A DNA stretch of 64,000 nucleotides from Nitrospira sp. (GTDB lineage Bacteria; Nitrospirota; Nitrospiria; Nitrospirales; Nitrospiraceae). Every line of letters begins with the position of its first letter. Position 1 is the first letter of the stretch. The stretch lies in contig AP038806.1 in assembly GCA_047150005.1 (NCBI GenBank), forward strand, positions 1,337,176 to 1,401,175, given 5' to 3'. Of the stretch, positions 48,565-64,000 are shown piece by piece. The notes beneath the pieces are model-generated. The model was given only the letters and a program-made list of their open reading frames with translations. It did not search any database and was not told where the DNA came from. A program made the position numbers and the translations under genes.

Positions 48565-50033
48565 CTTTCTGGCTCCAGCCTGATTTCCTTGACCTCCCCG
48601 AATCCGGACAACATCTTCGGCAAGGCGCCGCCCGGCCCGACGGCCACGATCGTCAGCCGGTCGGGATGAAGATGTTTCCGCGCCGCAGCGAGCAGTTCCT
48701 CCCGCTTGAGCGCGACGACACGGGCACGCAGTTGCTGTAAAAAGTCCTTCGGCAGCCCGTCGTATTCCAGTTCGATCAACCGATTGACGACGGCGGCGGC
48801 ATTCGGAAACGAAAAGACGAAGGAGTTCACATACGCTTCCTTCGCCTCCGCCAGTTCCTCTTCCGACACCACATCGGTACGGATGCGCTCGAGGTTGGCC
48901 ACGAACCGGGTGATCACTTCCTGTGTGGACGGCAGCTTCGTTTCGGCCCGCATCAGCCAGACTCCCTGATCGTGCACCCCTGGAGTGAGGCGGCTCCCGA
49001 CTGAATAGGCCAGTCCCCGCTTGGTCCGGACATCGTTGAACAGGCGGCTCCGGAACGAGCTGCCTCCGAGAATGTCGTTGGCCAGCGCCAGCGCCGCATA
49101 GTCCGGATCGGTCTCCTTGATGGACAAATGGCCGACCCGCAGGTGCGTCTGCGAGGTTTCCTTGCCGACGAACCGGATCGCCGGCGCCGAGGCCGCCGAC
49201 TCCCGGACATCGGGAATCTTCAGCTCCGGTACCTCCCCCTTCTTCCAGTCGCCGAAGGCCGCCCGCAGCATCGCCAACATTTCATCCTTGCGGAAGTCGC
49301 CCGTCACCCCCAGGATCATGCCGTTCGGATACACGGTCTTCCCGTGAAAGGCCACGAGGTCGGTGCGCGTGATCCGCCGGATGGACTCGACCGTGCTCTC
49401 CCTGGCGCTCGGATGGTCGGGACCGTAGAGCTGTTTGAGGAATTCGCGGCTGACGATGGAACCGGGATTGTCCTGTCGGCGCCGGATGCTCTCGATCGCT
49501 TGGAGCTTGGCGAGCTCCAGCCGGGCCGGTTCGAAGGAGGGGGAACGGAGCAGTCCGGCGAAGATATCGAGACCTCGCTTGAAATCCTTGCTCAAGACAT
49601 CGAGCGAGGCGGAACCGGACAGCCGCCCGATCGCGATGCCGACATCGCCCGCGAATTGCTCAAGTTCCTGATCCACCTGTTCGGCCGAGCGCGTGCCGCC
49701 GCCGCCTGTGCGCATGACCGTACCGGTGATCGCGGCCAGACCGACTTTCTCCGCCGGGTCAAGCCAGGCTCCCGTGCGCAGGGTCGCGGACAGGGTGATC
49801 AAAGGCAGTTCGTGGTCCTCAAGAAGATAGACCACCATCCCGTTCTCGAGCATCACCCGGTCGGGATCGGGCGGAGTGAATTCGACCGGCTCGAACTTCA
49901 TTGACCTGGGATCAGTCGTCGTCGCGTCGCCGCCCGCGGCGACCATCAATGGAAACAGCAATGCGAAGCCGGCCACACCCGCTGCCAGGCCGGTTCGCCG
50001 AATAGTCGATCGCACACGGTTCACGAAATTCAT
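48561..50033 (-). CDS. M16 (pitrilysin) family protein, non-catalytic subunit
   Basis: M16 fold lacking HXXEH, with SRLFNDVRTKRGLAYSV (R-Y pair). Confidence 0.9.
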   Translation of the reverse strand: MNFVNRVRSTIRRTGLAAGVAGFALLFPLMVAAGGDATTTDPRSMKFEPVEFTPPDPDRVMLENGMVVYLLEDHELPLITLSATLRTGAWLDPAEKVGLAAITGTVMRTGGGGTRSAEQVDQELEQFAGDVGIAIGRLSGSASLDVLSKDFKRGLDIFAGLLRSPSFEPARLELAKLQAIESIRRRQDNPGSIVSREFLKQLYGPDHPSARESTVESIRRITRTDLVAFHGKTVYPNGMILGVTGDFRKDEMLAMLRAAFGDWKKGEVPELKIPDVRESAASAPAIRFVGKETSQTHLRVGHLSIKETDPDYAALALANDILGGSSFRSRLFNDVRTKRGLAYSVGSRLTPGVHDQGVWLMRAETKLPSTQEVITRFVANLERIRTDVVSEEELAEAKEAYVNSFVFSFPNAAAVVNRLIELEYDGLPKDFLQQLRARVVALKREELLAAARKHLHPDRLTIVAVGPGGALPKMLSGFGEVKEIRLEPES

Positions 50034-51670
50034 CGAGTCACCTCACCGGCCGACGCCGCGGCCGCCTGTTTCACCGCGACTTTTTTGACCAACGTCGCCA
50101 CGGTTCGGTTCGATTTGGTGAAATATTCCGAGGCCACGCGTAGAATGTCCGCCGGCGTGACCGCTGCAATCTTGTCCCGCGCGTTGAGTATGTAGCGCCA
50201 GTCCCCCGCCACGGTCTGATAGAGGGCGAGCTGGGAAGCAAGCCCGCTGTTGGAACGTAAGGCGCGAACCATATCCGCATCCAGATTGTTGAGCACTTTC
50301 TCCAACTCCTTTGCAGTGACCGGCTCGCTCTTGAGCCGCTCCAATTCGGCCAGAATCGCGGATTCGACCTCCGCCGCCGTATGAGGCGCCAGCGGGGTCG
50401 CCTGCAGCACGAACAGATTGGGGGCACGCACGCCCGGATAGTTGGCGTCCGAGTTGACCGAGGAGGCGAGCCTGCCGCCCAGCACTAGCTTGGTATACAA
50501 ACGCGACGTCAATCCGTCCGTCAGGATCTCGTCGATCACGTCGAACACATAATCGTCCGGATGTCCGAGGCCTGGTTTGTGGAAGCCGATGGCCAGGGAA
50601 GGCTCCGCGTCGAACTCGACTTCAACCCGGCGCTCGCCGCGCTGCGGAGGCTCGACCGTCACGATCTGCGGCGGGGGCGGCGCGGCCGGAATTTTTCCGA
50701 ACGTGTTCTCGATCAAGGTGATCACGTCCTTCGGGGTGATGTCTCCCACGATGCCGATCGTGGCGCGTCCCGGTCCGTAGTACGTCTTGAAGAACGCCTC
50801 CGTGGTGGCCGGCGTCAAGGACAGAATGTCCGATTCCCATCCGATCGTCGGAACTCCGTAGGGATGGGCGCGGAACGCGGCCGAGGTAAAGGTTTCAAAG
50901 AGCAGCCCGCTCGGGCTGTCGTCATTGCGCAACCGCCGCTCTTCCATGACCACACCCCGCTCCTTGTAAAACTCCCGAAGGACCGGGTTGGCCATGCGAT
51001 CGGCCTCGATCGCCGCCCACAGCGGTAACCGGTTGGATGGCAGATTGATCATATAGCGGGTCAAATCCTTCCCCGTCGCCGCGTTCAGTCCCACTCCGCC
51101 GTGACGCTGATAGAGCAGGGCCATTTCGTTGCCGGACACGTACTGCGCGGCCTGTTCCTGCAGCTCCTTCGCGCGCTGCTGCAGGCCGGCGATGGCGGCT
51201 TGCTCGTCCGGATCCGCTGGCCGCTCCTGAGATCGCCGGGCCGCCTCGCGCTGCCGTTGTTCGAGCTCCGTGCCGGCCCGCGACAACTCCTCCAGGAGCG
51301 GCTTCTCTTTGGCATAGTCCTTGGTCCCGATCGTCCTGGTCCCCTTGAACGCCATGTGCTCGTACAGATGTGCCAGCCCGGTCTGCCCGACCTGTTCGTT
51401 GACTCCCCCGACCGCGAAGGTCATGTTGATCGAGACGATGGGCGTTTGATGCCGCTCGACCATGAGCACCGTCAGGCCATTGGCCAATTTGTGCTCGATC
51501 ACCCGCTCGGCCAAGCCGGGCGCAGCTGCAAAAAGAGGGTTGAGGTTCAGGCTCAAGGTGAGGAGCATGGCAAGAACCAAGGCCGTGAAGCGCGAGGCGT
51601 GAAGGCTATCTCGCGAACGGCAACCAACGAACGACGAAATACGAGATACGAGCGACGTTTCTCTGTTCAT
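50030..51670 (-). CDS. M16 (pitrilysin) family zinc peptidase, catalytic subunit
   Basis: GLAHLYEHMAFKGT (HXXEH) and ERGVVMEERR. ATGA coupling to the gph stop. Confidence 0.93.
   Translation of the reverse strand: MNRETSLVSRISSFVGCRSRDSLHASRFTALVLAMLLTLSLNLNPLFAAAPGLAERVIEHKLANGLTVLMVERHQTPIVSINMTFAVGGVNEQVGQTGLAHLYEHMAFKGTRTIGTKDYAKEKPLLEELSRAGTELEQRQREAARRSQERPADPDEQAAIAGLQQRAKELQEQAAQYVSGNEMALLYQRHGGVGLNAATGKDLTRYMINLPSNRLPLWAAIEADRMANPVLREFYKERGVVMEERRLRNDDSPSGLLFETFTSAAFRAHPYGVPTIGWESDILSLTPATTEAFFKTYYGPGRATIGIVGDITPKDVITLIENTFGKIPAAPPPPQIVTVEPPQRGERRVEVEFDAEPSLAIGFHKPGLGHPDDYVFDVIDEILTDGLTSRLYTKLVLGGRLASSVNSDANYPGVRAPNLFVLQATPLAPHTAAEVESAILAELERLKSEPVTAKELEKVLNNLDADMVRALRSNSGLASQLALYQTVAGDWRYILNARDKIAAVTPADILRVASEYFTKSNRTVATLVKKVAVKQAAAASAGEVTR
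51584..51657. repeat. Heptamer-built inverted-repeat element (copy D, inside the coding sequence)
   Basis: Left arm CGTGAAG CGCGAGG CGTGAAG GCTATCT; right arm AACGACG AAATACG AGATACG AGCGACG. Confidence 0.65.
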
Positions 51671-52314
51671 TCGAATATCTCCATCAATTGTTCCGGTCGT
51701 TCAATGAACCAGTCGGGGCGGCAGGCGGTCATGCGCTCACGGTTTCCCATGCCGTAGCCGACCGCGCAGACGCGGATTCCGGCATTGTGGCCGCCGTTGA
51801 TGTCGTTGGTGCTGTCTCCCACCAACACGGTCCGGTCCGGCACGGCCTGCAGGCGTTCCATGATGTGCAACAACATGCCCGGTTCCGGTTTGAGGCCGAA
51901 CCCGTTGTCGCCGCCGACGACGAACTGAAAGTGCTGCGCGCCCAGGCCCTGCAGGATCACGTTGGTGAATTCGATGGACTTATTGGTGGCCACCGCCTTG
52001 CTGGTGCGACCAAAATGCTGCAACGCCGGCTCGATGCCCGGGTAAAAGCGCGTGCGATCGAGGCAATGCGCCAGGTAATGCCCTCGGAAGACCCGCAGAG
52101 CCTCGTCGAAACGGTCCGGGTTGCTCTCTCCCACCGCTTGTCTGAGCAACTTCTTCACTCCATCTCCGACGAAACCGAAAATCTCCTCGAGCGGACGCTC
52201 CGGCAGCCCCAGCTCGGCCAGCGTCAAATTCACGGAGGCGGCGATGTCCCATTTCGATTCGATCAGCGTGCCGTCCAGATCGAATATCAGTAAGTCGACC
52301 GGCGTTTTTCCCAT
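51667..52314 (-). CDS. gph: Phosphoglycolate phosphatase-like HAD hydrolase
   Basis: IFDLDGTL, VATNK, KPEP and LVGDSTNDI. Confidence 0.85.
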   Translation of the reverse strand: MGKTPVDLLIFDLDGTLIESKWDIAASVNLTLAELGLPERPLEEIFGFVGDGVKKLLRQAVGESNPDRFDEALRVFRGHYLAHCLDRTRFYPGIEPALQHFGRTSKAVATNKSIEFTNVILQGLGAQHFQFVVGGDNGFGLKPEPGMLLHIMERLQAVPDRTVLVGDSTNDINGGHNAGIRVCAVGYGMGNRERMTACRPDWFIERPEQLMEIFE

Positions 52315-52871
52315 TACTTCACCTTCCGCAATTCATCCTCCAACCCGGCGAGCCGGTCCCGCTTGTCCGGCTCGCTTTCCTTCACCCAAGCCTCGCGCAC
52401 GTAATTGAGCATCCGCTTCTGGCCGACATGCGGGGGCAGCACGGGCTCGATGATTCTCCAGCGATTCTTGACCGATTTGACTCGGACACGGATTTCCTCC
52501 GTTCCCGCCTCGGGAACGAATCCGGCGGTTTCAAGATAGACGGATCCAATGATTTGAAATGCTACCGGCACCACCACTTCCAGGCGATCGACGATATCCC
52601 ACTGAGTGTAGTGCTCCGCCACGGTAAAGCCGCGGATGACCACGATGCGCCCCCAGGTCGGCTCGTCCCGCCAGTCGGTATACGGCGCGACTGCTTCGAA
52701 CGACAGGGAGTCCAGGCGCGCGCCCTTTTGATCGAGCAGGAAATACTTTTTCACGATCTCGGCGGGCGAATGCTCGAGGCCCCCGGTCTGTCCGGCTGCC
52801 GCGCCGCTGAACAACAGCAGTCCAAGCAGACTCAGGAAGGCCGGCACCGACCGAGATGGCCGACGTCTCAT
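52314..52871 (-). CDS. Exported hypothetical protein
   Basis: Signal peptide MRRRPSRSVPAFLSLLGLLLFSGAAA. ATGA overlap with the pyk stop supports a start at 52871. Confidence 0.75.
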   Translation of the reverse strand: MRRRPSRSVPAFLSLLGLLLFSGAAAGQTGGLEHSPAEIVKKYFLLDQKGARLDSLSFEAVAPYTDWRDEPTWGRIVVIRGFTVAEHYTQWDIVDRLEVVVPVAFQIIGSVYLETAGFVPEAGTEEIRVRVKSVKNRWRIIEPVLPPHVGQKRMLNYVREAWVKESEPDKRDRLAGLEDELRKVK

Positions 52872-54352
52872 GGGACCTCGTGCAACTTCATGAGATTCGT
52901 TCCTCCCGGCTGTCCGATCCGTGTCCCGGACAAGATGACGATCCGTTCGCCCGGTTTCACGAACCCCTCCGCCTTCAAGCGGCGTTCCGCTTCGTGGACT
53001 CGTTCGTCCGTTTGCGCGATCTGGTGCATGCAATGCGGAATCACGCCCCAATAAAGCGCCATCCGCTGACGAACGGGCTCGAACGGGGTGAACGCGACGA
53101 TCGGGGCCGCAGGGCGTTGCTTGGAGATCAACCGCGCCGTCGCGCCCAACTCGCTGAATGCCACGATCGCGCTGGCCGTGATGGCCCAGGCGGCCGTGGA
53201 TGCCGCGGTGCAGATCGCCTCCGAACAGGACCGCGCGTTGCCGTCGGCGTCACGCCGGCGCACGGCCGACGGCTCAATCCCTTCCTCCGCAGCCCGGATG
53301 ATCCGATCCATGACCCGAACCGTTTCGACCGGATAGCGTCCGATGGCGGTTTCCGCCGACAACATCACGGCATCGGTGCCGTCGAACACCGCATTGGCGA
53401 CATCGGAGGCTTCGGCTCTGGTCGGACTGGCACGCTGGGTCATGGATTCCAACATCTGGGTCGCCGTAATGACCAGCCGGCGACGGCGGTTGGCCTCGGC
53501 GATAATGCGCTTCTGTAGGACCGGCACGGCTTCGGCCCCCATCTCGACGCCCAGATCGCCGCGCGCGATCATGACGCCGTCCGCGGCGTCCAGAATGGCG
53601 GGCAAGGCGTTCACGGCTTCGACGCGTTCGATCTTGGCGATGATCGGCACGTCCCGCCCGCAGGCGGCGACCAACTGCTTCGCGGCCTTGACGTCCTCCG
53701 GTCCGCGGACGAACGACAGCGCAATATAGTCCACGCCCGCCGCGACTCCGAACCGGATGTCCTCGCAATCCTTCTCCGTCAGCGTGGGCGCACTGACGGT
53801 CGTTCCTGGCAGATTGATGCCTTTGTGCGAGAGGATGCGCCCGCCGGTGACAACCAAGCACTCGACGACACCGCCGGCAATTCGAGTGACCGTCAGCTCG
53901 ATCAGGCCGTCGTCGATGAGAATACGCCCCCCCGGCCTGACGTCGCGAGCCAAGTGCTGGTAGGTCACGGGAATGTCGATCTGCCCGTCGGACATCCCCC
54001 CGGGCGCGGCACCGATCTGAGCGCCCTGAGCGCCCGACTGCGCCAGTTGACCGCCCGACCGGGCCAGCGCCGTCCGCAGTCGCACTGATTGCCCGGGTGC
54101 GACCTCCAGACCCTTTTCGCTCACCTCGTCCACCCTGATGCGCGGTCCTTGAACGTCTTGAATGATGGCGACCGCGACCTTGCGGCCGGCGGCGGCTTCG
54201 CGAACGGCCTGAATGGCGCGGCCGTGCGAGGCGTGCGTGCCGTGGGAGAAATTCAGTCTGGCGGCGTCCATTCCATGCTCGATGAGACGACCCAGCATGT
54301 CCAGCGACTCACTGGCCGGACCGATCGTGCAGACGATCTTGGCTTTTCTCAT
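52868..54352 (-). CDS. pyk: Pyruvate kinase
   Basis: KAKIVCTIGPAS, ARLNFSHG, IIAKIE, MIARGDLGVE, ITATQMLESM and DAVMLSAETA. Confidence 0.97.
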   Translation of the reverse strand: MRKAKIVCTIGPASESLDMLGRLIEHGMDAARLNFSHGTHASHGRAIQAVREAAAGRKVAVAIIQDVQGPRIRVDEVSEKGLEVAPGQSVRLRTALARSGGQLAQSGAQGAQIGAAPGGMSDGQIDIPVTYQHLARDVRPGGRILIDDGLIELTVTRIAGGVVECLVVTGGRILSHKGINLPGTTVSAPTLTEKDCEDIRFGVAAGVDYIALSFVRGPEDVKAAKQLVAACGRDVPIIAKIERVEAVNALPAILDAADGVMIARGDLGVEMGAEAVPVLQKRIIAEANRRRRLVITATQMLESMTQRASPTRAEASDVANAVFDGTDAVMLSAETAIGRYPVETVRVMDRIIRAAEEGIEPSAVRRRDADGNARSCSEAICTAASTAAWAITASAIVAFSELGATARLISKQRPAAPIVAFTPFEPVRQRMALYWGVIPHCMHQIAQTDERVHEAERRLKAEGFVKPGERIVILSGTRIGQPGGTNLMKLHEVP

Positions 54353-54368
54353 GCGACGCCCTTCGTGC

Positions 54369-54397
54369 TTGACAAGACAGTAACCGCCACCCAATAT
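54369..54397 (+). promoter_or_regulatory. sigma70-type promoter candidate toward the phosphatase/PFK locus
   Basis: TTGACA-N17-CAATAT in the pyk/pfk divergent region. Confidence 0.4.
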
Positions 54398-54539
54398 TCA
54401 TTGCGGGCCAGCGCCGCAGGCATCCGGAAGGCAGCTGGACGGAGAAAGGTCTCTCTCGCGTTAATGACGGGTCATTCTAACAAACGAGAATTCCACCCGC
54501 AAAGATTCTTCCAGCCTGAGGCGCGTACCGGGAGGTCCC

Positions 54540-55697
54540 ATGGAGCACCCAACCCGACGACTTGATTTCGTGACGATCGGCGGGCTGGTGGCCTACGGAG
54601 AACTCCTGGCGCAGCGGCAAGCCCACGAGGATCTGCTCCTGCCCTCTCCGCCTCCGACCACGAACGATCGACGCCGGGCGGCAGAGGGAGCCCTCGATGC
54701 CGTCCGGTCGTTCGTTGAACGCGCCAAGGCCGGATTCGAAGACGCCGCCGCCTATCGGGCCGCGCGACGGGCGCTCCTCGAAGACCATTGCGCGGGGGAT
54801 CCGCTGGTATTTTTCGCCGCCTGGAACACATGTCTGGCATCGGGGGAATTGCAGCCGCTGTTGCACGCGCCGATCCGAACGGTGTCCAAACCGATGCATC
54901 GCCGCCCCGTGGCCATTGTCCCCCGGGCCGATCTCACACCCCAATTGGCCGAAGGCCGGATCGTCCTGGACCTGGGCGACGATCGATTCTGGCTGTTACC
55001 CCGCGATCTCACGGGCCGGACCCGGCTGTTCACGATGCGCCACGGTGTCTCCAGGGGCGAGAGCAAGACTCACCGTGTCGGCTGCCGCCTGATGAATCGA
55101 CTCGACCCCGAACGGGGATTTTCCCGCGCGGACTCGGTCGGGGCCGCACTGGCCCGCATGGTCGGCGTGGTAGCCCAGCAGCTCGATTTTCTCCATCTCT
55201 CCAACTATCTCAACCCGCACGCCTTTCTGCACTTCATCAGCCGCAGTCCCAACACGAAACAACTCTTCTATCGGGTGGTCGAGGCCCTCGTGCCGGACGC
55301 GGGATCAAGACCGGAGCCGGCGCTCGAGCCGGCATTGGAGTCATCGGATTTCGGGTGGGTCACCGGGATGGAGAAAACGTTGGAGGCCGAGGAAGCGGCC
55401 CGGGTATTCGGCGTCGACGTGAAGAGCGCCAAGTCTCTGCTCAAGGATCCCCTCTATTGCTACCCGGGCGGCAACTCGTTCTTCGACCTGTACGTAGACG
55501 TGATCGACGGTCTCCATGGCGTCGGGCGCGCGCACCCGGGCAAGGTCGCCTGCCTGTATACGCACAGCTCGACGCTCCGTGCGCTGATGATCTATTTGGA
55601 TGCCCGGCCGTTCCACGAAGCCTTTACGGAGTTCAGTGACTATAAAGAGAGCCAGGACAACGTTGTGCTCCTGACGTTCGAGCATGGACGGTTGTAG
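54540..55697 (+). CDS. Histidine-phosphatase (PGM-like) domain protein; N-terminal half of an apparently interrupted phosphatase-PFK frame
   Basis: MRHG, LESSDFGWVTG, YPGGNSF and LYTHSSTLRAL motifs. It ends at a TAG that is in frame with the downstream PFK ORF. Confidence 0.8.
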   Translation: MEHPTRRLDFVTIGGLVAYGELLAQRQAHEDLLLPSPPPTTNDRRRAAEGALDAVRSFVERAKAGFEDAAAYRAARRALLEDHCAGDPLVFFAAWNTCLASGELQPLLHAPIRTVSKPMHRRPVAIVPRADLTPQLAEGRIVLDLGDDRFWLLPRDLTGRTRLFTMRHGVSRGESKTHRVGCRLMNRLDPERGFSRADSVGAALARMVGVVAQQLDFLHLSNYLNPHAFLHFISRSPNTKQLFYRVVEALVPDAGSRPEPALEPALESSDFGWVTGMEKTLEAEEAARVFGVDVKSAKSLLKDPLYCYPGGNSFFDLYVDVIDGLHGVGRAHPGKVACLYTHSSTLRALMIYLDARPFHEAFTEFSDYKESQDNVVLLTFEHGRL

Positions 55698-55760
55698 GGT
55701 TACTCTACGGCGGTCGGCCTCTCCGAGCGGGAGCGGATCGCGCGGGAGGCCTGGCAAACG

Positions 55761-56858
55761 GTGGAGCGTGAGCGCAGGGATCGCGTCACCCTCAAGCCGC
55801 GGCAGGTGAAGCGGCTCATAGCCCTCGTTTCGGGAGGAGACTTTGCTGGCGCCGGCGCCGCGCTCAAGGAGTTGCGCGTGACCGGCAACCGGTTCGGACT
55901 GGAGGTGCGTTTTGTCCGTCACGGGTTTCTCGGTCTCGCGAACAATTGGATCGAAGCCGTCACCGAACACGACACGCGGGGGATGAGCAGCCTGGCGAGC
56001 AGTCCCATCGGTAGCAGCCGGTTCGAAGATTTCAAAGACGAGCGGGTCCAACAGGCGGCGATGCGACACCTCACCCCCTATGCAAACGACAGCGTCGTCG
56101 TCGTGCTGGGAGGCGACGGCAGCCTGCGAGGCGCGCGGGCCATCTACGAAAACTTCGGCGTGCAGGTTATCGGACTTCCTGGCACCATCGACAACAACAT
56201 CGACGGCACGACCTCGCTCGGATTTCATTCGGCCGTGGCGCTCGCCAACCAGTCGATCGAGTCGCTCAAGGCCACGAGTTCGGCCATGGGCAGCATTTTC
56301 TTCGTCGAAGTCATGGGCGCCGGGTCAGGACACTTGGCCCTGGCGTGCGCCTATCAGGCGCGCGCAGAGGGTCTGTTGGTCAACGAGCATCCGGATCCGG
56401 ACGCCTACATCGACGAGATCATCCTCGGAACGCTGAAGCGCACGCTGGGCGTTCCCAATAAGAGTCATCTGTTCGTGGTGGCGGAGCGCACTCCTCACCG
56501 CCATCACCGGGAAGGCGGCGTGCACGGTCTGGTCGACCACATCGCCGACACGATCGCGCACTGGCCGCAGCGCCAGGTGAAAGCCGATCAGTATCCGCTG
56601 ACGCTGGCCACCAAGGCCACCATTCTCGGCCACACGCTCAGAGGCGCGCCGCCCACACCTGAAGACAAGACCATCGCGCAGCACCTGGCATACGAAACGG
56701 TCCGACGGGTGGTGGAGGCGCCCGACACGATCGTGGGCTGCATGGTCGCTTATCGCGATCAGGCGACCATCGACACCATTCCACTCCACGCCGTATCACC
56801 CAAACCGTTCAATTGGGCGCTCTTCGCCCGGATGCACGGAAGCGAAGCGACGGACTGA
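55761..56858 (+). CDS. 6-phosphofructokinase (PfkA-family) domain, divergent
   Basis: SGGD, GSSRF, GGDGS, PGTIDNN, VEVMG and LGHTLRG motifs. The frame is open back to the TAG at 55695-55697, with a possible GTG restart after a GGGAGG SD. Confidence 0.85.
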   Translation: MERERRDRVTLKPRQVKRLIALVSGGDFAGAGAALKELRVTGNRFGLEVRFVRHGFLGLANNWIEAVTEHDTRGMSSLASSPIGSSRFEDFKDERVQQAAMRHLTPYANDSVVVVLGGDGSLRGARAIYENFGVQVIGLPGTIDNNIDGTTSLGFHSAVALANQSIESLKATSSAMGSIFFVEVMGAGSGHLALACAYQARAEGLLVNEHPDPDAYIDEIILGTLKRTLGVPNKSHLFVVAERTPHRHHREGGVHGLVDHIADTIAHWPQRQVKADQYPLTLATKATILGHTLRGAPPTPEDKTIAQHLAYETVRRVVEAPDTIVGCMVAYRDQATIDTIPLHAVSPKPFNWALFARMHGSEATD

Positions 56859-56935
56859 CCATACGCGCTCCCGCGCTTCGTTGACCTCGATTCGGAACGC
56901 ATGATAGCGTCTGGCCTCTATCGGGACATCCGGCG

Positions 56936-57391
56936 ATGATGCGCCCACCCACACGAGGCATCTGGTCGGGATTGATCGGTCTCGCGCTGCTGCTCAGCGC
57001 GACGGTCGGAACGACCGGCACGGTCGATCCGCAGATCGAGCCGCCGGGGCGTGCTTCTTCCAAGCTTCAGACACTCCCAAGCAACGGTCTGCCCTCGGAA
57101 ACGGACGAGGCGGCCTCGGCACTCAGTCAGAAGACCGAGATTCCTCAAAAGGCGAAGGACCTCCTCCAGACGATTCGGGAGCGTCAGGGCGCCCCGCCTC
57201 CCGGCTACGTGGGAGGACGTGCGTTTCACAACCGCGAACGCCGGCTCCCTCGGGGTCTGTACCGAGAGTATGATGTCAACCCCAAGCTACGAGGCCGGCC
57301 GCGCGACGCGGAACGGATCGTGATCGAGCAGAAGACCGGCCTGGCTTACTACACGGCCGACCATTATCGAACGTTCGTTCCTTTCAGGTAA
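56936..57391 (+). CDS. Secreted guanyl-specific ribonuclease (barnase / RNase Sa-like)
   Basis: Signal peptide, YVGGRAFHNRERRLP, YREYD (catalytic Glu), ERIV and YYTADHY (catalytic His). Confidence 0.92.
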   Translation: MMRPPTRGIWSGLIGLALLLSATVGTTGTVDPQIEPPGRASSKLQTLPSNGLPSETDEAASALSQKTEIPQKAKDLLQTIRERQGAPPPGYVGGRAFHNRERRLPRGLYREYDVNPKLRGRPRDAERIVIEQKTGLAYYTADHYRTFVPFR

Positions 57392-57396
57392 GGCCC

Positions 57397-57942
57397 ATGC
57401 CGCACCAGACGTCCCTCGGCTCCGTCATCCAGTCGATCAAGGCACCCTGGGTCATGCTGCTTGTGCTCAATCCGGGAGATCACGTCGAGAGAATCTTTCA
57501 CGTCCCGGACGGGTTCAGTCTGCATGTGCTCCGCGGAGCTAAGTGCCGCACGGGCGCCGGGTTGTTCCAGGAATTCGCCCGCGCGTTGAAGTTTCCCGAC
57601 TATTTCGGACACAACTGGGATGCCTTGGAAGAGTGCCTCGCGGATCTGGAATGGTTGCCCGCCAAAGGCTACGTGCTGGCCGTCACGGAAGCGGAGCAGG
57701 TGCTCACGCAGGAGGAAGAAGATTACAGCACGTTTCTCGAGGTGCTGAGCGACGCGGGTGAAGCCTGGGCGACCGGCCAGGCCGGTTCCGGATCCAGGCG
57801 GCCCTTTCACGTGATCCTGACCGTGTCCGAACCGCAGCGACTCAAACGAGCGCACTGGTCGATCCCGAAGGTGGACCTTGGTGCGGACGTGCGGCGACTC
57901 CGGCCCAAGACATCGCGAAGGCGCCCTTCAGCCGGAACCTGA
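57397..57942 (+). CDS. Barstar-family ribonuclease inhibitor
   Basis: ALKFPDYFGHNWDALEECLADLEWL barstar signature, 5 bp after the RNase gene. Confidence 0.92.
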   Translation: MPHQTSLGSVIQSIKAPWVMLLVLNPGDHVERIFHVPDGFSLHVLRGAKCRTGAGLFQEFARALKFPDYFGHNWDALEECLADLEWLPAKGYVLAVTEAEQVLTQEEEDYSTFLEVLSDAGEAWATGQAGSGSRRPFHVILTVSEPQRLKRAHWSIPKVDLGADVRRLRPKTSRRRPSAGT

Positions 57943-58058
57943 ATCCGTACCGCCATCGGCAGGACACGCGGCACCGTAAGGTCCGCGTAAGGTCAGATCG
58001 ACTGGAGGGGACAGCTGGGGTAAAAGAGTACGCTTGATGGGGCAGACGTTCCGGTCAT

Positions 58059-58274
58059 TCACCGCCGCTTCCACCGGAAGGGTCCATGAGACAGCGGACC
58101 GTCGGTTGCCGCGTCTCGGTCACAGGCACGGGACGCCCGCCATCGGGCCTGGACTTCATCGCGGTGTATCTTGCAAATGCCGTGTGTTTCCCGCACATCA
58201 TCGAAGGGGGGCTTCTCCCCCACCACGTCGCTGTTCTTTCCCTCGTACCGGCACCAGGAACACACGACCTTCAT
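58059..58274 (-). CDS. Small hypothetical protein with a putative metal-binding CxxC...HxxCxxH motif
   Basis: MKVVCSWCRYEGK...THGICKIH. The start at ATG 58274 is a judgement call. Confidence 0.6.
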   Translation of the reverse strand: MKVVCSWCRYEGKNSDVVGEKPPFDDVRETHGICKIHRDEVQARWRASRACDRDAATDGPLSHGPFRWKRR

Positions 58275-58534
58275 ACTCAGCGCCTTCTTCAGATCCTGTC
58301 TGTAGATAACGCAAGATTCGGACCGATGCCCAGTGTGCCCGAGGAGAGCGGTATTTCCTAAATAAATCGCAAACCCGCGTGTGGAGACCATCACCATCCG
58401 ACTGAATCAAAAATGAATCGCCTGTGGATCGAAGTCGCCATTTTTTTGGCATCCTCGACCACATTCGAGCTGGGATCGAGGTCGTCGGCTTCCTTGACCG
58501 GTTCTCGCCGACCATGATAGGTTGCGCCCCCGTC

Positions 58535-59818
58535 ATGAAGACCACGCGCTCAGCCAAACTCTTCGAACGGGCCAACCAGCTCATCCCAGGCGGCGTCAAC
58601 AGCCCGGTGCGGGCCTTTCGCTCGGTCGGAGGCCAACCCCGTTTCATCAGCCGGGCGAAGGGTTCACGTCTCTACGACGTCGACGGTAACGCCTACATCG
58701 ACTACGTACTGTCCTGGGGTCCGATGATCCTCGGGCACGCGGCGCCTTCGGTGGTCACAGCACTCAGGAAGGCGGCCGGGCGCGGCACGAGTTTCGGCGC
58801 GCCGACCGAGTTGGAGGTCACGCTGGCCGCGATGATCCAGGAGGCGTTCCCCTCCATGGAAAAGATCCGGCTGGTAAGTTCCGGCACCGAGGCGGTGATG
58901 AGCGCGATTCGGGTCGCGCGCGGATTCACCAAGCGCGACACGATCCTGAAATTTGAAGGCTGCTACCACGGCCACAGTGACTATCTGCTTGCGAAAGCCG
59001 GGTCCGGCCTTGCCACGTTGGGCATCCCGGATTCGCCCGGCGTCCCGGAAGACTTCGCCAAACATACCCTCACCGCCCCTTATAACGACATCGGCGCGGT
59101 CCGCCGCCTGGTCGACGAACATCGCGGCCGCCTCGCCTGCATCATTCTGGAGCCGATTGCCGGCAACATGGGCGTGGTGCCTCCGGCTCCGGACTTCCTA
59201 ACCGAGCTGCGGAAACTGACGCTCGAGCACGACATGCTGCTGATTTTTGACGAAGTGATCACGGGATTTCGGGTCGCCTACGGCGGCGCACAGAACCTCT
59301 ATGGGGTGACGCCCGACTTGACGGTGCTGGGTAAGATCATCGGCGGAGGACTGCCGGTCGGCGCCTACGGCGGCAGGCGGGAAATCATGGATCTCATCGC
59401 GCCCTCTGGGCCGGTCTATCAAGCCGGGACTTTGTCGGGAAATCCGCTGGCCGTGACAGCCGGGATCGCCACGCTCACCAAACTCAAGGGCCGTGGCGTC
59501 TATGCCGGGCTCGAAGCGCGGGCCGCGACGTTCGCGAAAGAGTTGGGCGCTGCGGCCAAGAAGGCGGGCATCCCGCTCACGCAGACGCGGGTGGGCTCCA
59601 TGCTGACTTCGTTCTTCACCTCAGGTCCGGTAACCGATTGGACGACGGTCAAGCGATCGGATACGCAGCGATATGGCCGGTTCTTCCACACGATGCTCGA
59701 ACAGGGGATCTACCTGGCACCTTCCCAGTTCGAAGCCGCGTTTCTCTCCACCGCCCATTCCTTGGCAGACATCGACAAGACGCTCCGCGCCGCATACGCG
59801 GCCTTTAAAACACTGTAA
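58535..59818 (+). CDS. hemL: Glutamate-1-semialdehyde 2,1-aminomutase
   Basis: [42 protein letters not shown] (PLP Lys) and [10 protein letters not shown]. Confidence 0.98.
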
Positions 59819-59820
59819 TT

Positions 59821-59927
59821 CGTTGCTCGTGAAGCGTCGCTCGTATCTCGTTAGATACAAGCCGACCGGTTCCAATACAGAAATCTTCTCTCCTTTGCGC
59901 TTCACGAGATACGCATCACGATTCACG
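59821..59927. repeat. Heptamer-built inverted-repeat element (copy A, empty)
   Basis: Left arm CGTTGCT CGTGAAG CGTCGCT CGTATCT; right arm CTTCACG AGATACG CATCACG ATTCACG. Perfect 10-bp stem CGTATCTCGT/ACGAGATACG. Confidence 0.8.
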
Positions 59928-59931
59928 TTAC

Positions 59932-60162
59932 TTATTCGTCGTCCTCGTCGTCCGCATCCATGGCCTCCTGACGTTTCTGCTCTTCCATGGCATTGTGCAG
60001 GAGCATGCGGATAAACATTGAATACAATGAGCCTTTTTCCAGAGTCCCGCCCGGAGGGATTGCAATCTTGCCCTCCTTAATCATCTTATCCATCCATACC
60101 TTCTGATCCGGTGCGATCAGAATGGGAATCTCAACGAGTCCGACTCGGCCGAACATTTCCAT
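59932..60162 (-). CDS. Small hypothetical protein with an acidic tail
   Basis: 76-aa ORF with a GGAGG SD and protein-like composition. Confidence 0.8.
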   Translation of the reverse strand: MEMFGRVGLVEIPILIAPDQKVWMDKMIKEGKIAIPPGGTLEKGSLYSMFIRMLLHNAMEEQKRQEAMDADDEDDE

Positions 60163-60173
60163 GACTCAACCTC

Positions 60174-60254
60174 CGTGAAGCGTCGTTCGTATCTCGTATC
60201 TCGCAGGAGAATGAAGGGCATCGTAGAGATACGCTTCACGAGCTACAAGATACG
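60174..60254. repeat. Heptamer-built inverted-repeat element (copy B, empty)
   Basis: Left arm CGTGAAG CGTCGTT CGTATCT CGTATCT; right arm AGATACG CTTCACG AGCTACA AGATACG. Confidence 0.8.
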
Positions 60255-60330
60255 CTGCCATTCCAGCACGCGGTTTTCTCGAATGTCAACCGCACCGCTA
60301 TGGCATGGACTGTGCGTGCCGGTCAGTATC

Positions 60331-60675
60331 ATGGCTCACGCTCGAACCACGTTCGGCACGCTCATTGCCGTGGGGTTGATCCTCGCCGTTCCCCATCAGG
60401 GACCGGCGCAACCATCGACCGCGCCGCCTTCATCCCTCTCCTCCACACCGCTGGCTGCTGAGCCGACGGAATCGGACCTTCACCCGTCTTGCGACCTTTG
60501 CAGAAAACCGGAACGACGGTCGGGAAGCGATCTGCGACCGCACCGACTCAAGCGAGACAAGGGGCTGCATCCTCGAAAGCAATCGAGCGGCAGACACTCG
60601 TCGCCGGAGCAAGCCATGAAATCGACCTTGCCGCGCCGAACGATCACTTCGAATGACGAGGTGAGGCAGGAATAG
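60331..60675 (+). CDS. Exported hypothetical protein with CxxC
   Basis: Signal peptide MAHARTTFGTLIAVGLILAVPHQGPA, SCDLCRKP and a basic tail. Confidence 0.6.
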   Translation: MAHARTTFGTLIAVGLILAVPHQGPAQPSTAPPSSLSSTPLAAEPTESDLHPSCDLCRKPERRSGSDLRPHRLKRDKGLHPRKQSSGRHSSPEQAMKSTLPRRTITSNDEVRQE

Positions 60676-60894
60676 GCTACGGGCCAGGTGGATAGGCCGC
60701 CCGGGTGGCGAAGTTCTCTGGAACGGATCAGGTTGACACTTTCCTGTATTTCACGGAGAATCCGGAAAATTTTGCGCGGTTCGGGATGAGGAACCACACG
60801 TCCTTCCGAAAACAGCGGCTAACCGAGGACGATAGCGCCGCGCCAGTCCTGGCCAACTAGATTCGGGGAAAGTGAAGGTTGCAGGATCCACTCA

Positions 60895-61725
60895 ATGGGC
60901 CCTTTACTCTTAACTTTTCCGCTCGTCCTGCTGCTTTGCACGGATGCGCCTGCGCAGGCGACTGAGCTTCCGTTGTTTGACGCCCACATCCACTACAATC
61001 ACGACGTCTGGGAGTCGATCCCGTCGAGAGAAGCGATCGCGCGATTGCGTAACGCCGGAGTCAGGCGCGCGCTCGTTTCGAGTTCCAGCGACGAGGGCAC
61101 GCAGAAATTGCTGGCGGAAGCGCGCGACCTGATCATTCCGGAGTTAAGACCGTACCGTCGGAACGGCGAAACCGGCAGCTGGTTTCTCGATGAGTCGGTG
61201 GTTGAGTACCTCCGGAAGCGCCTGAGCCTGCACTCCTACGTTGCGATTGGAGAGTTTCACGTGAGCGGCGAGAATGCTGATCTTCCGGTTGTCCGAGCTA
61301 TCGTGCAACTCGCGAAGGACCACCGTCTGATGTTGCACGCGCATTCCGATGCCGACGCAGTGGAACGCCTGTTCCGGCAGGATCCTGGTGCTCGTATTCT
61401 CTGGGCCCACGGAGGTTATGAGAAGGCTCCGAGGATACGGGAGATGCTGCACCGCTACAAGAACTTGTGGGTCGAGCTCTCGTCCCGCGACGATCTGGTC
61501 CTGAACGGCCGGCTTGCGACAGACTGGCGGACCGTCCTGCTGGAGTTTTCCGATCGCTTCATGGTCGGCACCGATACCCACACACCGGATCGCTGGAACA
61601 GCATCGGCTCGAACGCGGACTCGGTTCGGGCCTGGCTGGCCGAGTTGCCCACGGAGGTCGCCGAGCGCATCGCCTACAAGAACGGCGAGGCTTGGCTCAA
61701 GGCCGGATTCTCCGATCGGCGCTGA
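60895..61725 (+). CDS. Exported amidohydrolase / TatD-like TIM-barrel metallohydrolase
   Basis: FDAHIHY, IGEFH, LHAHSD, WAHGG and MVGTD motifs, plus a signal peptide. Confidence 0.88.
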   Translation: MGPLLLTFPLVLLLCTDAPAQATELPLFDAHIHYNHDVWESIPSREAIARLRNAGVRRALVSSSSDEGTQKLLAEARDLIIPELRPYRRNGETGSWFLDESVVEYLRKRLSLHSYVAIGEFHVSGENADLPVVRAIVQLAKDHRLMLHAHSDADAVERLFRQDPGARILWAHGGYEKAPRIREMLHRYKNLWVELSSRDDLVLNGRLATDWRTVLLEFSDRFMVGTDTHTPDRWNSIGSNADSVRAWLAELPTEVAERIAYKNGEAWLKAGFSDRR

Positions 61726-61764
61726 CGCGGATAGGTGGCTCCTGTCTTGATGAGCGTCCCGCGA

Positions 61765-61872
61765 TTACTTCTTTTTCTTGTCGGAGGGATTTTCCGAGAA
61801 CAGCAGCCAACCGAGCACGACGAAGCCGATCACCACACCCCCAATGGCCAGCCAGGTCCCGATTTTGTCCAT
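61765..61872 (-). CDS. 35-aa single-pass membrane peptide (not in ORF track)
   Basis: Hand translation MDKIGTWLAIGGVVIGFVVLGWLLFSENPSDKKKK*. The ATG overlaps the thioesterase stop (TGATG). Confidence 0.75.
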   Translation of the reverse strand: MDKIGTWLAIGGVVIGFVVLGWLLFSENPSDKKKK

Positions 61873-62273
61873 CAGCTGTTCCCTTTCGCGTCGGACTGTA
61901 GCGCGGCCACAATCACCTTGTCGAGACGCGTCACCTTACCATTGCCGTTGGTGGCAGCCAGTCTGGCGGAGCCTTCCACCACGACGCGCCCGCTTTCTTT
62001 GTCCTTGATCACATGTGCAAAGGTCAACGAAGCGGCGCTGAGATCATGGACGGCCGTCTCGATGACCAACGTCTCTCCATAGCGAGCCGGTGAACGGTAG
62101 TCCACTTCCGCATGCACAACGACAAACACGGTGCCTTCGCTCATCAACTTCGCCACCGACAACCCGCGTTCCTCAAGATACTGCGTCCGCGCCCGTTCGA
62201 AATACTTGAGATAGTTCGCGTAGTAGACGACGCCCCCGCAATCGGTGTCTTCGTAATAAATGCGGATGTCCAT
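61872..62273 (-). CDS. ybgC: YbgC/FadM family acyl-CoA thioesterase
   Basis: IYYEDTDCGGVVYYANYLKYFERART hotdog-fold signature. Confidence 0.9.
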   Translation of the reverse strand: MDIRIYYEDTDCGGVVYYANYLKYFERARTQYLEERGLSVAKLMSEGTVFVVVHAEVDYRSPARYGETLVIETAVHDLSAASLTFAHVIKDKESGRVVVEGSARLAATNGNGKVTRLDKVIVAALQSDAKGNS

Positions 62274-62274
62274 T

Positions 62275-62720
62275 CGTATCTCGTCGTTCGTGAAGCGTAT
62301 CTCGCTAGAGCCGTTTGATCAGGTTCCTCAGCATTCTGGACTCGTGGTCGAGCTGTTCCAGCACCGTGTCCCGATCGCCGATCGACAGAAATCCTAAATC
62401 GTGGGCCACCTCAACTTGTGTTTCGAGTTCCGCACAGGAACCCAACGCGACATAGCGGAGCTGTCGATATTCTGCGTTATGCTTTCTGTTAAATCCTTCC
62501 GCGATATTTGAAGGAATCGACACAACCGCACGACGCATCTGCGAGACAAGTCCGTACATTTCTTCTTTCGGGAAACTCTTCGTCACTCGATAGACGGCGA
62601 GAACGATCTCCTTACCTAATCTCCATACTTCGAGCTCGCGAAAATTTCTGATCTTCATATTTCTCGCCCGCGTATCCGGCTCTCTGCTTGCGCTTCACGC
62701 TTCACGAGATACGCTTCACG
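62275..62720. mobile_element. Heptamer-IR-bounded cassette carrying the four-helix-bundle gene (copy C)
   Basis: Perfect 16-bp inverted repeats CGTGAAGCGTATCTCG (62289-62304) and CGAGATACGCTTCACG (62705-62720), embedded in further heptamer units. Mobility is inferred. Confidence 0.6.
62305..62658 (-). CDS. Four-helix-bundle protein (TIGR02436 / 23S rRNA-IVP-like, bAvd-like)
   Basis: FRELEVW, FPKEEMYGLVSQMRRAVVSIPSNIAEG, ALGSCAELETQ signature. Confidence 0.95.
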   Translation of the reverse strand: MKIRNFRELEVWRLGKEIVLAVYRVTKSFPKEEMYGLVSQMRRAVVSIPSNIAEGFNRKHNAEYRQLRYVALGSCAELETQVEVAHDLGFLSIGDRDTVLEQLDHESRMLRNLIKRL

Positions 62721-63975
62721 GTAGATGTAGCTTTGGAAATTGAGGTAGAGATGACTCGGTCACGCTCGCCATTCTGACGACCACGTCGTACAGCTGCTGC
62801 ACCCGCTCGGCCTTCACCGGTTCGAATCCATGACCCAGAATCCCATGGTTCGCCGCATCGAGTAGGGGTTTCATGGTGGGCCACTCCCGCAGAAAGGATT
62901 GTCCCAATTGATCGCCCAGTCCGGCCAGTGCACGGAACTGGGCCTGTAGCGGCAGCCGGTACTTGCCGTCGATGTCGTCCATATGACAGAGGCGACAGGT
63001 TTCCTGAAGGACCTGGGGCAACTGATCAGGCCGCACGTCCCACGTCTTGATCCCATGCGCTGTAAAGAGGCGGCGTTGCGCCATGGCTTCCAGCGCCCTG
63101 ACCAGTGCTCGCATCGCCGCCTCCGGATCGTTCGTCACACGCAATCGACGTCCCGCATGGGCGAGGAGATCGACCGCGACCAATTCTTTGACTTCCGAGG
63201 GGTCGAGCACGAGCTTCTCGAGAAACCCCGAATTGGCTTTGATCGCCGGCAGGCATGCCTTCACTTCCGCCGGGCCGCCGAACAGGGTCGCCATCTCCAG
63301 CGCCTTGATCGAGGATTTCAACTTCTCCCAGGCTTGACGATGCTGAAACCGTTCCCACAAATCATAGCCGTCGGCCACGTCGACGAGCGCGCGATACAGC
63401 GGTTTCAGCCCCCCGCTCACGCGATGCTCGACCTGGCGAAAGATCGCGGCGGCCGCCGCCAACGCGCCGCGATTGAACAGGGCACATCCTTCTCGCCTCG
63501 TGCCTCTGGCAGCCTCGTCCCAGGGATTGGCCTGGACCCATTGCCACTCGATCCCGTCGAGCGTGACCGTCTCTCCGTCACGCCCTTCTTGCGCGCCGAT
63601 GACGGATACCACGCGGGACGCATGCGGCATGGCCGCCAGCGTCAACCCCGCCGCCATCGCCGCCGTGGCGCCCGATAGATCCACCACGAGCGCTCCCGAT
63701 TCGATTCCCCAGGTTTCGAGCAGTGTCGGCAACGATCGGGCGATCGTCACGTAACAGGCCGGGAAACTCTCGACATCGGGCACGACGATCCAGTCCCAGC
63801 GTCGTGGGATCTGGGACAGCTTGGGTTGCAGATCGTGTTCGACCAACGGTTTCGCCGATTCGGGAAGGACGAAGCAGGCGGCGTCGGGTCGCAAGCGGTT
63901 GAGGGAATAGACCGCACCCGCGACCTCCTTCGTCAGCGCCACGACCAAGGCTTGAACCGGCTGTTCTTGTGCCAT
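62716..63975 (-). CDS. TIGR02710-like CARF-domain protein with a degenerate HEPN-like C-terminus
   Basis: YSLNRLRPD, VVDLSGATAAMAAG, VQANPW, FNRG, YDLWERFQH, DLLAHAGRR, RALEAMAQRRL and NHGILGHGF follow the TIGR02710 motif order. The family call is from recognition, not a search. Confidence 0.75.
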   Translation of the reverse strand: MAQEQPVQALVVALTKEVAGAVYSLNRLRPDAACFVLPESAKPLVEHDLQPKLSQIPRRWDWIVVPDVESFPACYVTIARSLPTLLETWGIESGALVVDLSGATAAMAAGLTLAAMPHASRVVSVIGAQEGRDGETVTLDGIEWQWVQANPWDEAARGTRREGCALFNRGALAAAAAIFRQVEHRVSGGLKPLYRALVDVADGYDLWERFQHRQAWEKLKSSIKALEMATLFGGPAEVKACLPAIKANSGFLEKLVLDPSEVKELVAVDLLAHAGRRLRVTNDPEAAMRALVRALEAMAQRRLFTAHGIKTWDVRPDQLPQVLQETCRLCHMDDIDGKYRLPLQAQFRALAGLGDQLGQSFLREWPTMKPLLDAANHGILGHGFEPVKAERVQQLYDVVVRMASVTESSLPQFPKLHLP

Positions 63976-64000
63976 CGCGCGCGGACTATAGCATCGGTCC

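Follow-up and report, generated by a model that had tools for sequence, protein, structure and literature searches.

The 64,000-nt stretch of the Nitrospira sp. chromosome analysed here (positions 1,337,176 to 1,401,175 of contig AP038806.1, hereafter the window) contains a 442-nt insert, element D, in which a gene for a four-helix-bundle protein of the PF05635/TIGR02436 family is enclosed by two inverted arrays of 7-base words. This insert is best explained as a cassette of the type known from the intervening sequences (IVS) of 23S rRNA, which carries its own set of words and has moved together with them as a unit, the encoded protein probably binding the words; a probability of about 0.6 is given to this reading. 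The genome under study (G000) is a single contig of 4.07 Mb with 59% G+C, and coordinates are those of the window unless G000 is named.

Element D occupies positions 62274-62715 on the minus strand and, as shown by the junction table, lies exactly between the start codon of a thioesterase gene (62271-62273) and the stop codon of a CARF gene (62716-62718). The gene-proximal upstream arm (62691-62720, minus strand) reads CGTGAAG CGTATCT CGTGAAG CGTGAAG in the sense of the gene, the TGA stop codon of the CARF gene falling within its first CGTGAAG word. The downstream arm (62275-62304, minus strand) reads CGTATCT CGTCGTT CGTGAAG CGTATCT CG on the plus strand and ends 1 nt short of the thioesterase ATG. 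A perfect 16-bp inverted repeat (62289-62304/62705-62720) is shared by the two arms, and the sole open reading frame (ORF) between them is the four-helix-bundle gene (62305-62658, minus strand, 117 amino acids). Its product matched PF05635 with 119.5 bits (cut-off 33.8, E 1e-34) and TIGR02436 with 114.3 bits (cut-off 24), the nearest solved relative being the pentameric XCC0516 (PDB 2GSC, E 2e-23). The family motif, published as GxxRxxxSxxxNxxE (PMC3936711), was found as QxxRxxxSxxxNxxEG, with Q40, R43, S47, N51, E54 and G55 invariant among 12 genus copies. By these matches the D protein is a member of the PF05635/TIGR02436 family of 23S rRNA IVS proteins. In the predicted minimum-energy fold of the 474-nt D RNA (z −2.47) both ends were paired, through two 9-bp helices or, in another register, through the 16-bp perfect stem; several registers are possible because the words are modular. 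An earlier note on this DNA had described perfect 16-bp inverted repeats that enclose only a TIGR02436-type gene, with arms able to pair; coordinates, ORF, profile scores and the closed ends of the predicted fold all agree with that description. No match was obtained in an Rfam search of window positions 50000-64000.

The link between the gene and its arms was examined in a catalogue of about 55 PF05635 copies of the genus. Nearly all of them were armed, with about 25 word sets, and the clades of the protein tree coincided with the word sets. Orthologous sites were removed by flank similarity before protein identity was compared with arm words. All nine different-site pairs with at least 60% protein identity shared words (four independent groups, two of them within genome G046 alone), and the five pairs with at least 15 common arm 7-mers all had at least 60% identity, compared with 4 of 1357 other pairs. 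Where a single site held different words, the proteins belonged to different clades, as for the CGT and GCCATA words at the CARF-thioesterase junction (site D) and for the three word sets at site E, which argues against replacement of the arms in place and against the landing of a gene in pre-existing hairpins. The latter explanation supposes that the gene alone is mobile and that the arms are host sequence; gene-less hairpins do far outnumber filled ones, and the same junctions carry gene-less hairpins in relatives. However, the arm words can be predicted from the protein lineage, whatever the site, genome or phylum, and two cassettes at one site differ both in words and in protein clade. The explanation is largely refuted and is considered very improbable.

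The same coupling was found outside the genus. In a species-level collection of genomes, the D protein had its 80 closest relatives (54-85% identity) in Nitrospirota, Smithellaceae, Planctomycetota, Omnitrophota, Sumerlaeota and others. At least three exact core words flanked the gene at 24 of 24 loci with at least 70% identity, at 28 of 40 loci between 62% and 70%, and at 3 of 16 loci below 62%, while three core words were present in 0.2% of random 220-nt pieces of G000. Third-codon identity among these relatives was 0.36-0.43, that is, near saturation. Below about 60% identity the words changed stepwise, giving CGTTGCT/AGTTGCT, GGTATCT and AGTGAAT. In a second lineage, obtained from metagenome contigs, at least two AGTGCTG/AGTCCTG words flanked the gene in 6 of 6, 8 of 16 and 4 of 52 cases in three identity bands; its words drifted to AGTACTG, AGTGATG, GGACTGA and AGTAACG, and CGT words were absent. 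Among orthologous cassettes the order and number of the words varied and the words themselves stayed, and some Smithellaceae copies had a complete small hairpin on each side of the gene, with no single enclosing stem. Both features suggest that selection acts on the words and is not confined to pairing. Conservation of the words exceeds neutral expectation, they are, to judge from these comparisons, under selection, and gene and arms appear to constitute one evolutionary unit that has moved.

The CARF-thioesterase junction was compared in 30 genomes of the genus. The gene with CGT arms was found in G000, G023 and G043, as well as in N. defluvii and other named Nitrospira, and a decayed gene with CGT arms in G007. 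In G044 and G012 the CGT arms surrounded a 120-220-nt loop in which only the 3' end of the gene was left, short remnants were seen in G004, G014, G015, G018 and G041 (21 nt), and a solo arm in G046. A different PF05635 lineage with GCCATAn arms occupied the junction in G006, G001 and G017, gene-less hairpins of two further word sets were present in G009 and in G021 and G002, and the junction was empty in G003 and G022. The empty site read TGAATG or TGAGTG in two genus genomes, with a spacer of 0 nt. The CGT-armed proteins were 68-75% identical, close to the value for the flanking thioesterase (71-72%), which fits vertical descent, and the GCCATA-armed proteins showed 36-40% identity to them.

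Similar variation was seen at other junctions. Sites filled in relatives were, in G000, empty, or contained a solo arm together with the initial 14 nt of the ORF, or held a gene-less hairpin of another family, and the site of the second PF05635 gene of G000 carried gene-less hairpins of other word sets in relatives. Over the roughly 33 Nitrospira genomes compared, such junctions are thus hot spots whose states range over filled, decayed, gene-less and empty, and the presence/absence polymorphism at orthologous sites that the earlier note had proposed to look for is seen, remnants included. Its proposal that the empty copies are non-autonomous derivatives was borne out in part: the decay series from filled cassette to short remnant at site D speaks for it, and the gene-free record of a second junction, site B (see below), speaks against it.

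The solo arm of G000 lies at about 458560-458640 of the genome and consists of an upstream arm of GGGTAAG/GGGATAA words, after which come the initial 14 nt of a four-helix-bundle ORF (ATGCATTGGAGGGA); comparison with the cassette that is intact there in G002 and G009 identifies it as a deletion remnant. At the same site G006 and G046 carry two other cassettes with other words.

The heptamer words of element D are dispersed over the G000 genome. Runs of at least four CGTNNNN units numbered 18 and 13 on the two strands, compared with 0-9 for control trinucleotides; period-7 self-similarity gave 45 clusters genome-wide, compared with 0-16 for periods 5, 6 and 8-11; and the 13-base word pattern CGTGAAGCGTNNNNCGT occurred 25 times, compared with once for the reversed control. 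The heptamer pattern is beyond chance. Several array families were distinguished, two of which were abundant. Some 43 arrays and 15 clear hairpins belonged to the CGT family, and some 61 arrays and 10 clear hairpins to the CAGCACT/CAGGACT family. Only two PF05635 genes were found in G000. The second (G000 2078878-2079312; 111.7 bits against the family profile, above the cut-off) has a UbiE-like methyltransferase gene on one side and a radical-SAM gene on the other, and the inverted arrays that enclose it (AGTGCTG ... CAGCACT) are those of the second family, so that the two abundant array families match the arm words of the two PF05635 genes, one each. Thus the arrays are not confined to the four sites of the window, and their association with four-helix-bundle genes holds elsewhere, for both genes of G000 as for nearly all copies of the genus.

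All 25 paired hairpins were intergenic and usually filled the whole gap; as judged from heuristic ORF calls, 15 stood between tandem, 9 between convergent and 1 between divergent genes. Four units per array was the mode, as in 23 of the 43 CGT arrays. The words CGTGAAG, CGTATCT, CGTCGTT and CAGCACT contain no G-tracts, and a quadruplex explanation therefore does not apply. Comparable intergenic heptamer repeats are the short tandemly repeated repetitive (STRR) sequences of cyanobacteria.

Two further observations concern the second family and the ORFs within cassettes. The second PF05635 ORF reads through its downstream arm (L002 1402-1500; G000 about 2078878-2078976), so that the C-terminal tail of the protein, ...STQHSLPSTQH, is encoded by AGTGCTG words, and several other copies of the genus have open frames longer than the domain. 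In addition, an 11-kb stretch of G000 (3769569-3780363) contains more than 12 CAGCACT-type arrays in the same orientation, plus CGAAACC/CGAAATC arrays, far from ORF ends and unlike the junction-filling hairpins elsewhere.

High counts of the CGT pattern (25-131) were obtained only in genomes that hold a CGT-armed gene, namely G000, G023, G043, G046, N. defluvii, G052 (another Nitrospiraceae genome) and one Planctomycete, a Sedimentisphaerales genome. In N. defluvii, with a single PF05635 gene, 39 hits were spread over the chromosome, and in the Sedimentisphaerales genome, of another phylum, the CGT hits lay far from its eight PF05635 genes. No CGT-pattern hits were found in 13 genus genomes. 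The data are compatible with, but do not prove, an origin of the arrays in genomes that have the gene and their persistence once it is lost. The highest count, 131, was that of G046, a genome with 10 PF05635 matches and two pairs of paralogous cassettes with common arm words (L092, L095, L098, L107, L109).

Besides element D, the window contains three gene-less elements. Element A (59821-59927) is a hairpin of CGT words that fills the space between two genes with convergent 3' ends, hemL and a gene for a 76-aa protein (59932-60162, minus strand); its left arm (59821-59855) reads CGTTGCT CGTGAAG CGTCGCT CGTATCT CGTTAGA, its right arm lies at 59900-59927, and its folding was more stable than that of shuffled sequences (z −3.3/−4.2). 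Element B (60174-60254), likewise a hairpin of CGT words, has its arms at 60174-60201 and 60226-60254 (minus-strand fold z −2.4) and is bounded on one side by the ribosome-binding site of the 76-aa gene and on the other by a conserved 34-nt motif. Element C (51584-51657), at the 5' end of a minus-strand gene, has CGT-type words on its left side and complements of CGT words on its right. The words of A and B (CGTGAAG, CGTCGTT/CGTCGCT, CGTATCT) are those of D. All four elements were found as the earlier note had placed them, each with a left arm of CGT heptamers and a right arm of their reverse complements, the copies sharing words only, with heptamer order and number differing between them, and A, B and C containing no gene.

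The same note had A and B bracketing the 76-aa gene, and as a matter of position this is correct. The gene has no Pfam or NCBIfam match, encodes a product with an acidic tail, adjoins hemL, and is a conserved core gene of the genus (78-94% nucleotide identity), kept in nearly all genus genomes with or without hairpins; a role as cargo of A and B was rejected, since it is a core gene throughout the genus irrespective of the hairpins. Site B comprised only 26-31 nt in 11 genus genomes and elsewhere carried hairpins of at least three word sets.

The 34-nt stretch beyond hairpin B (60257-60290) was 87-97% identical in about 20 genus genomes amid variable surroundings. On the minus strand it contains TTGACA, and in hairpin-free genomes it lies 26-31 nt upstream of the start of the 76-aa gene. 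It is probably the promoter or operator of this gene, in which case hairpin B would lie, as seems probable, within the 5' untranslated region. At site A, many genus genomes, G000 not among them, have a different palindromic element of about 120 nt (L063, L064, L073, L074, L076 and others) with the sequence gttcaaaacag...ggccgcagc.agcgaag...gagcgaagcgagaacgaagc...gttttcaacagc, which may represent a second dispersed repeat family.

Several results weigh against the interpretation of D as a mobile cassette whose protein reads its words. No mobility enzyme was found for the cassette and no target-site duplication at the D junction (TGA/insert/ATG); the context common to filled and empty sites D and B was only TGAA/GTGAA, too short to count. 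The earlier proposal of a transposase-free mobile cassette is upheld as regards the unit of gene and arms, with no transposase within it. The one close filled/empty pair, G021 (85-nt hairpin) and the near-identical G003 (empty), differed in some 80 nt of diverged sequence around the junction, a recombined flank patch and not a clean insertion event; each patch matched another genome of the same state, which suggests that the states were exchanged by homologous recombination. The hairpin of element C was no better than that of shuffled sequence (z −0.95/+0.5). The abundance test for the GCCATA word set was affected by an overlap of its pattern with GCNNTCA words of another G023 cassette. Finally, recognition of the words by the PF05635 protein, although most likely, is an inference.

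The remaining unfavourable results are also those expected if the gene-less hairpins were an independent class of intergenic repeats, like the STRR sequences or the GGGAATC repeats of Xanthomonas, with which the cassettes merely share or from which they borrow words. The hairpins would then be stabilisers of RNA, terminators or by-products of replication, and the protein would have no specific relation to the gene-less arrays. G041, a sister of G000 with 99% completeness, has no PF05635 gene and yet gave 30 CAG-type and 10 CGT-type hits; two Smithellaceae chromosomes with an armed gene had arrays only at the cassette; site B, with its three or more word sets, was gene-free in all 30 genomes examined; and the arms of one element of G000 paired no better with each other than with same-family arms of other elements. 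The placement of the arrays (the gene orientations given above and the mode of four units) is in addition that of the published heptamer repeats (PMC4692102). On the other hand, for two lineages the identical words accompany the protein in other phyla as well, and the two abundant families of G000 correspond precisely to the words of its two genes. N. defluvii, with one gene, has the words of this gene throughout its genome, a Planctomycete of the same protein lineage has the same words dispersed, and the decay of a filled cassette to a gene-less hairpin is visible at site D. An independent repeat class is accordingly judged unlikely, though it is the most serious of the alternatives.

Two narrower ideas were given up. 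A private stem kept by each gene-less element was dropped, own-arm pairing being no better than foreign-arm pairing, and dependence of the gene-less arrays on the gene for their upkeep was rejected because G041 keeps 40 pattern hits without it. Taken with the flanking hairpins of Smithellaceae, the pairing result indicates that the conserved feature is the word set and not one long stem.

Under the cassette interpretation of D, the PF05635 gene and its two inverted word arrays would have been placed as a unit at different junctions, here in a zero-length gap between co-oriented genes, swapped among strains through recombination, transferred across phyla and repeatedly degraded in situ, the words changing stepwise with the protein under selection. 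The encoded protein, which we infer to recognise the words with which it always travels, would bind them, as RNA or DNA, in the arms of its cassette, and may also bind the same words in the dozens of gene-less arrays at other junctions. By analogy with the rRNA intervening sequences, the arms would be co-transcribed with the host operon, pair, and be cut by RNase III; such cutting would free the flanking cistrons, so that the insert would be tolerated inside an operon. A wider proposal is put forward only tentatively, as possible rather than probable: that PF05635 proteins are sequence-specific readers of 7-base words and co-evolve in this respect with the arms of their cassettes, and that each lineage seeds gene-less arrays, over the whole genome, at operon junctions and gene ends and acts on them in trans, forming a transposase-free system of protein plus site.

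The neighbours of element D were identified by profile matches as a YbgC/FadM-type acyl-CoA thioesterase (61872-62273, minus strand) downstream and a TIGR02710 CARF/Csm6-type HEPN protein (62716-63975, minus strand) upstream. The position between two housekeeping-like genes assigned to D in the earlier note therefore needs qualification, the right neighbour being of a CRISPR-associated type and not plainly housekeeping. The CARF/HEPN gene adjoins the thioesterase gene in 25 of the 30 genus genomes examined, and the sole CRISPR array of G000 (50 repeats, 540113-543697 of the genome) lies 800 kb away; the gene has the appearance of a free-standing CARF-HEPN gene among housekeeping neighbours.

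A weak similarity of the D protein to bAvd (PF22296, E 1e-4) raised the question of whether it might be the accessory protein Avd of a diversity-generating retroelement (DGR), with the arrays related to template and variable repeats. The score against NF033474 was 22 bits, below the cut-off of 80, the neighbours of D are the CARF and thioesterase genes, and no reverse transcriptase (RVT_1) domain was found anywhere in G000, so that the protein is not a DGR Avd; for the D locus this explanation is refuted and retains practically no probability. An rRNA intervening sequence in the strict sense was also rejected, D being between the CARF and thioesterase genes and not in an rRNA helix. A miniature inverted-repeat transposable element (MITE) or other non-autonomous transposon was rejected because the copies share only words, the D junction has no target duplication and the cassette no transposase. 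Mobilisation by a REP-associated tyrosine transposase (RAYT), as for repetitive extragenic palindromic (REP) sequences and bacterial interspersed mosaic elements (BIME), was discarded as well, neither of the two Y1_Tnp genes of G000 being flanked by arrays.

Among known systems, the 23S rRNA IVS are the closest. The IVS of Coxiella burnetii (S23p) and Leptospira have the protein family in common with D (Warrier et al. 2016, PMC4990558); like D they are about 430-450 nt long, have terminal inverted repeats that form a stem around the ORF, and contain no transposase. The Coxiella IVS is a PF05635-family cassette with tandem heptamers next to the start codon, their number varying between strains, and with an RNase III cut in the stem (PMC4990558); this cutting has been shown for the Coxiella IVS and would by analogy extend to D. 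The 23S rRNA IVS have also been proposed in print to be mobile, now or formerly (PMC4990558), and PF05635 ORFs have been reported in rRNA inserts of bacteria of the candidate phyla radiation. In contrast to the 23S rRNA IVS, element D lies between protein-coding genes, its arms consist wholly of several alternating heptamer words, and these words also form dozens of gene-less hairpins genome-wide.

The gene-less arrays of G000 resemble two published heptamer repeats, Xanthomonas GGGAATC and Nostoc GGGGA(C/T)T, which form inverted arrays without a gene (Rehm et al. 2015, PMC4692102). Both have 7-nt units, inverted pairs on opposite strands, a preference for four units and for gaps between aligned or convergent, rarely divergent, genes, and a unit number that varies between relatives. 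Unlike those repeats, the words of G000 are not G-rich and several of them alternate in each array; no mention of a link to PF05635 was found in that paper (PMC4692102). REP/BIME sequences with RAYT genes, and MITEs, are likewise short palindromic intergenic multicopy repeats whose gene-less copies far outnumber coding ones, but the G000 copies share words and not alignable sequence, and no target duplication was seen. Unlike the REP/BIME systems, moreover, the sole array-associated gene encodes a protein of the four-helix-bundle type, for which no catalytic fold is known.

A position wedged between cas genes has also been described for PF05635 genes (Zhang et al. 2013, PMC3936711), which another paper lists as CRISPR-associated (PMC10910872). 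As in those operons, the D gene stands between two co-oriented genes, here beside CARF/HEPN, and has the same conserved motif. A possible cas function was read from this arrangement (PMC3936711, PMC10910872); since the operons of the second copy and of the genus copies are unrelated and 800 kb separate the D locus from the CRISPR array, the association with CARF looks like an insertion at a junction. In a literature search, no published work was found that joins the PF05635 family to heptamer-word arms outside rRNA or that reports a coupling between protein lineage and words. What is contributed here is the full series of filled, decayed and empty sites, the reuse of junctions by different cassettes, paralogues in the same genome with common arms, and the coupling quantified in two lineages.

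Two puzzles may thus be one: the role of the four-helix-bundle IVS protein family, and the origin of intergenic heptamer repeats such as the STRR sequences and those of Xanthomonas and Nostoc. Nitrospira offers a handle on both, with complete genomes whose one or two genes are matched by one or two array families, a sister genome that lost the genes and kept the arrays, and hot-spot junctions that cover the whole range of states from filled to empty. The coupling of protein and words across phyla, in which silent sites are saturated, predicts a specific code of protein-nucleic acid recognition, which could be tested with the two proteins and the two word sets of a single genome. If true, a word-reader system would explain both a four-helix-bundle family of unknown function and the long-unexplained STRR-type heptamer repeats of many bacteria.

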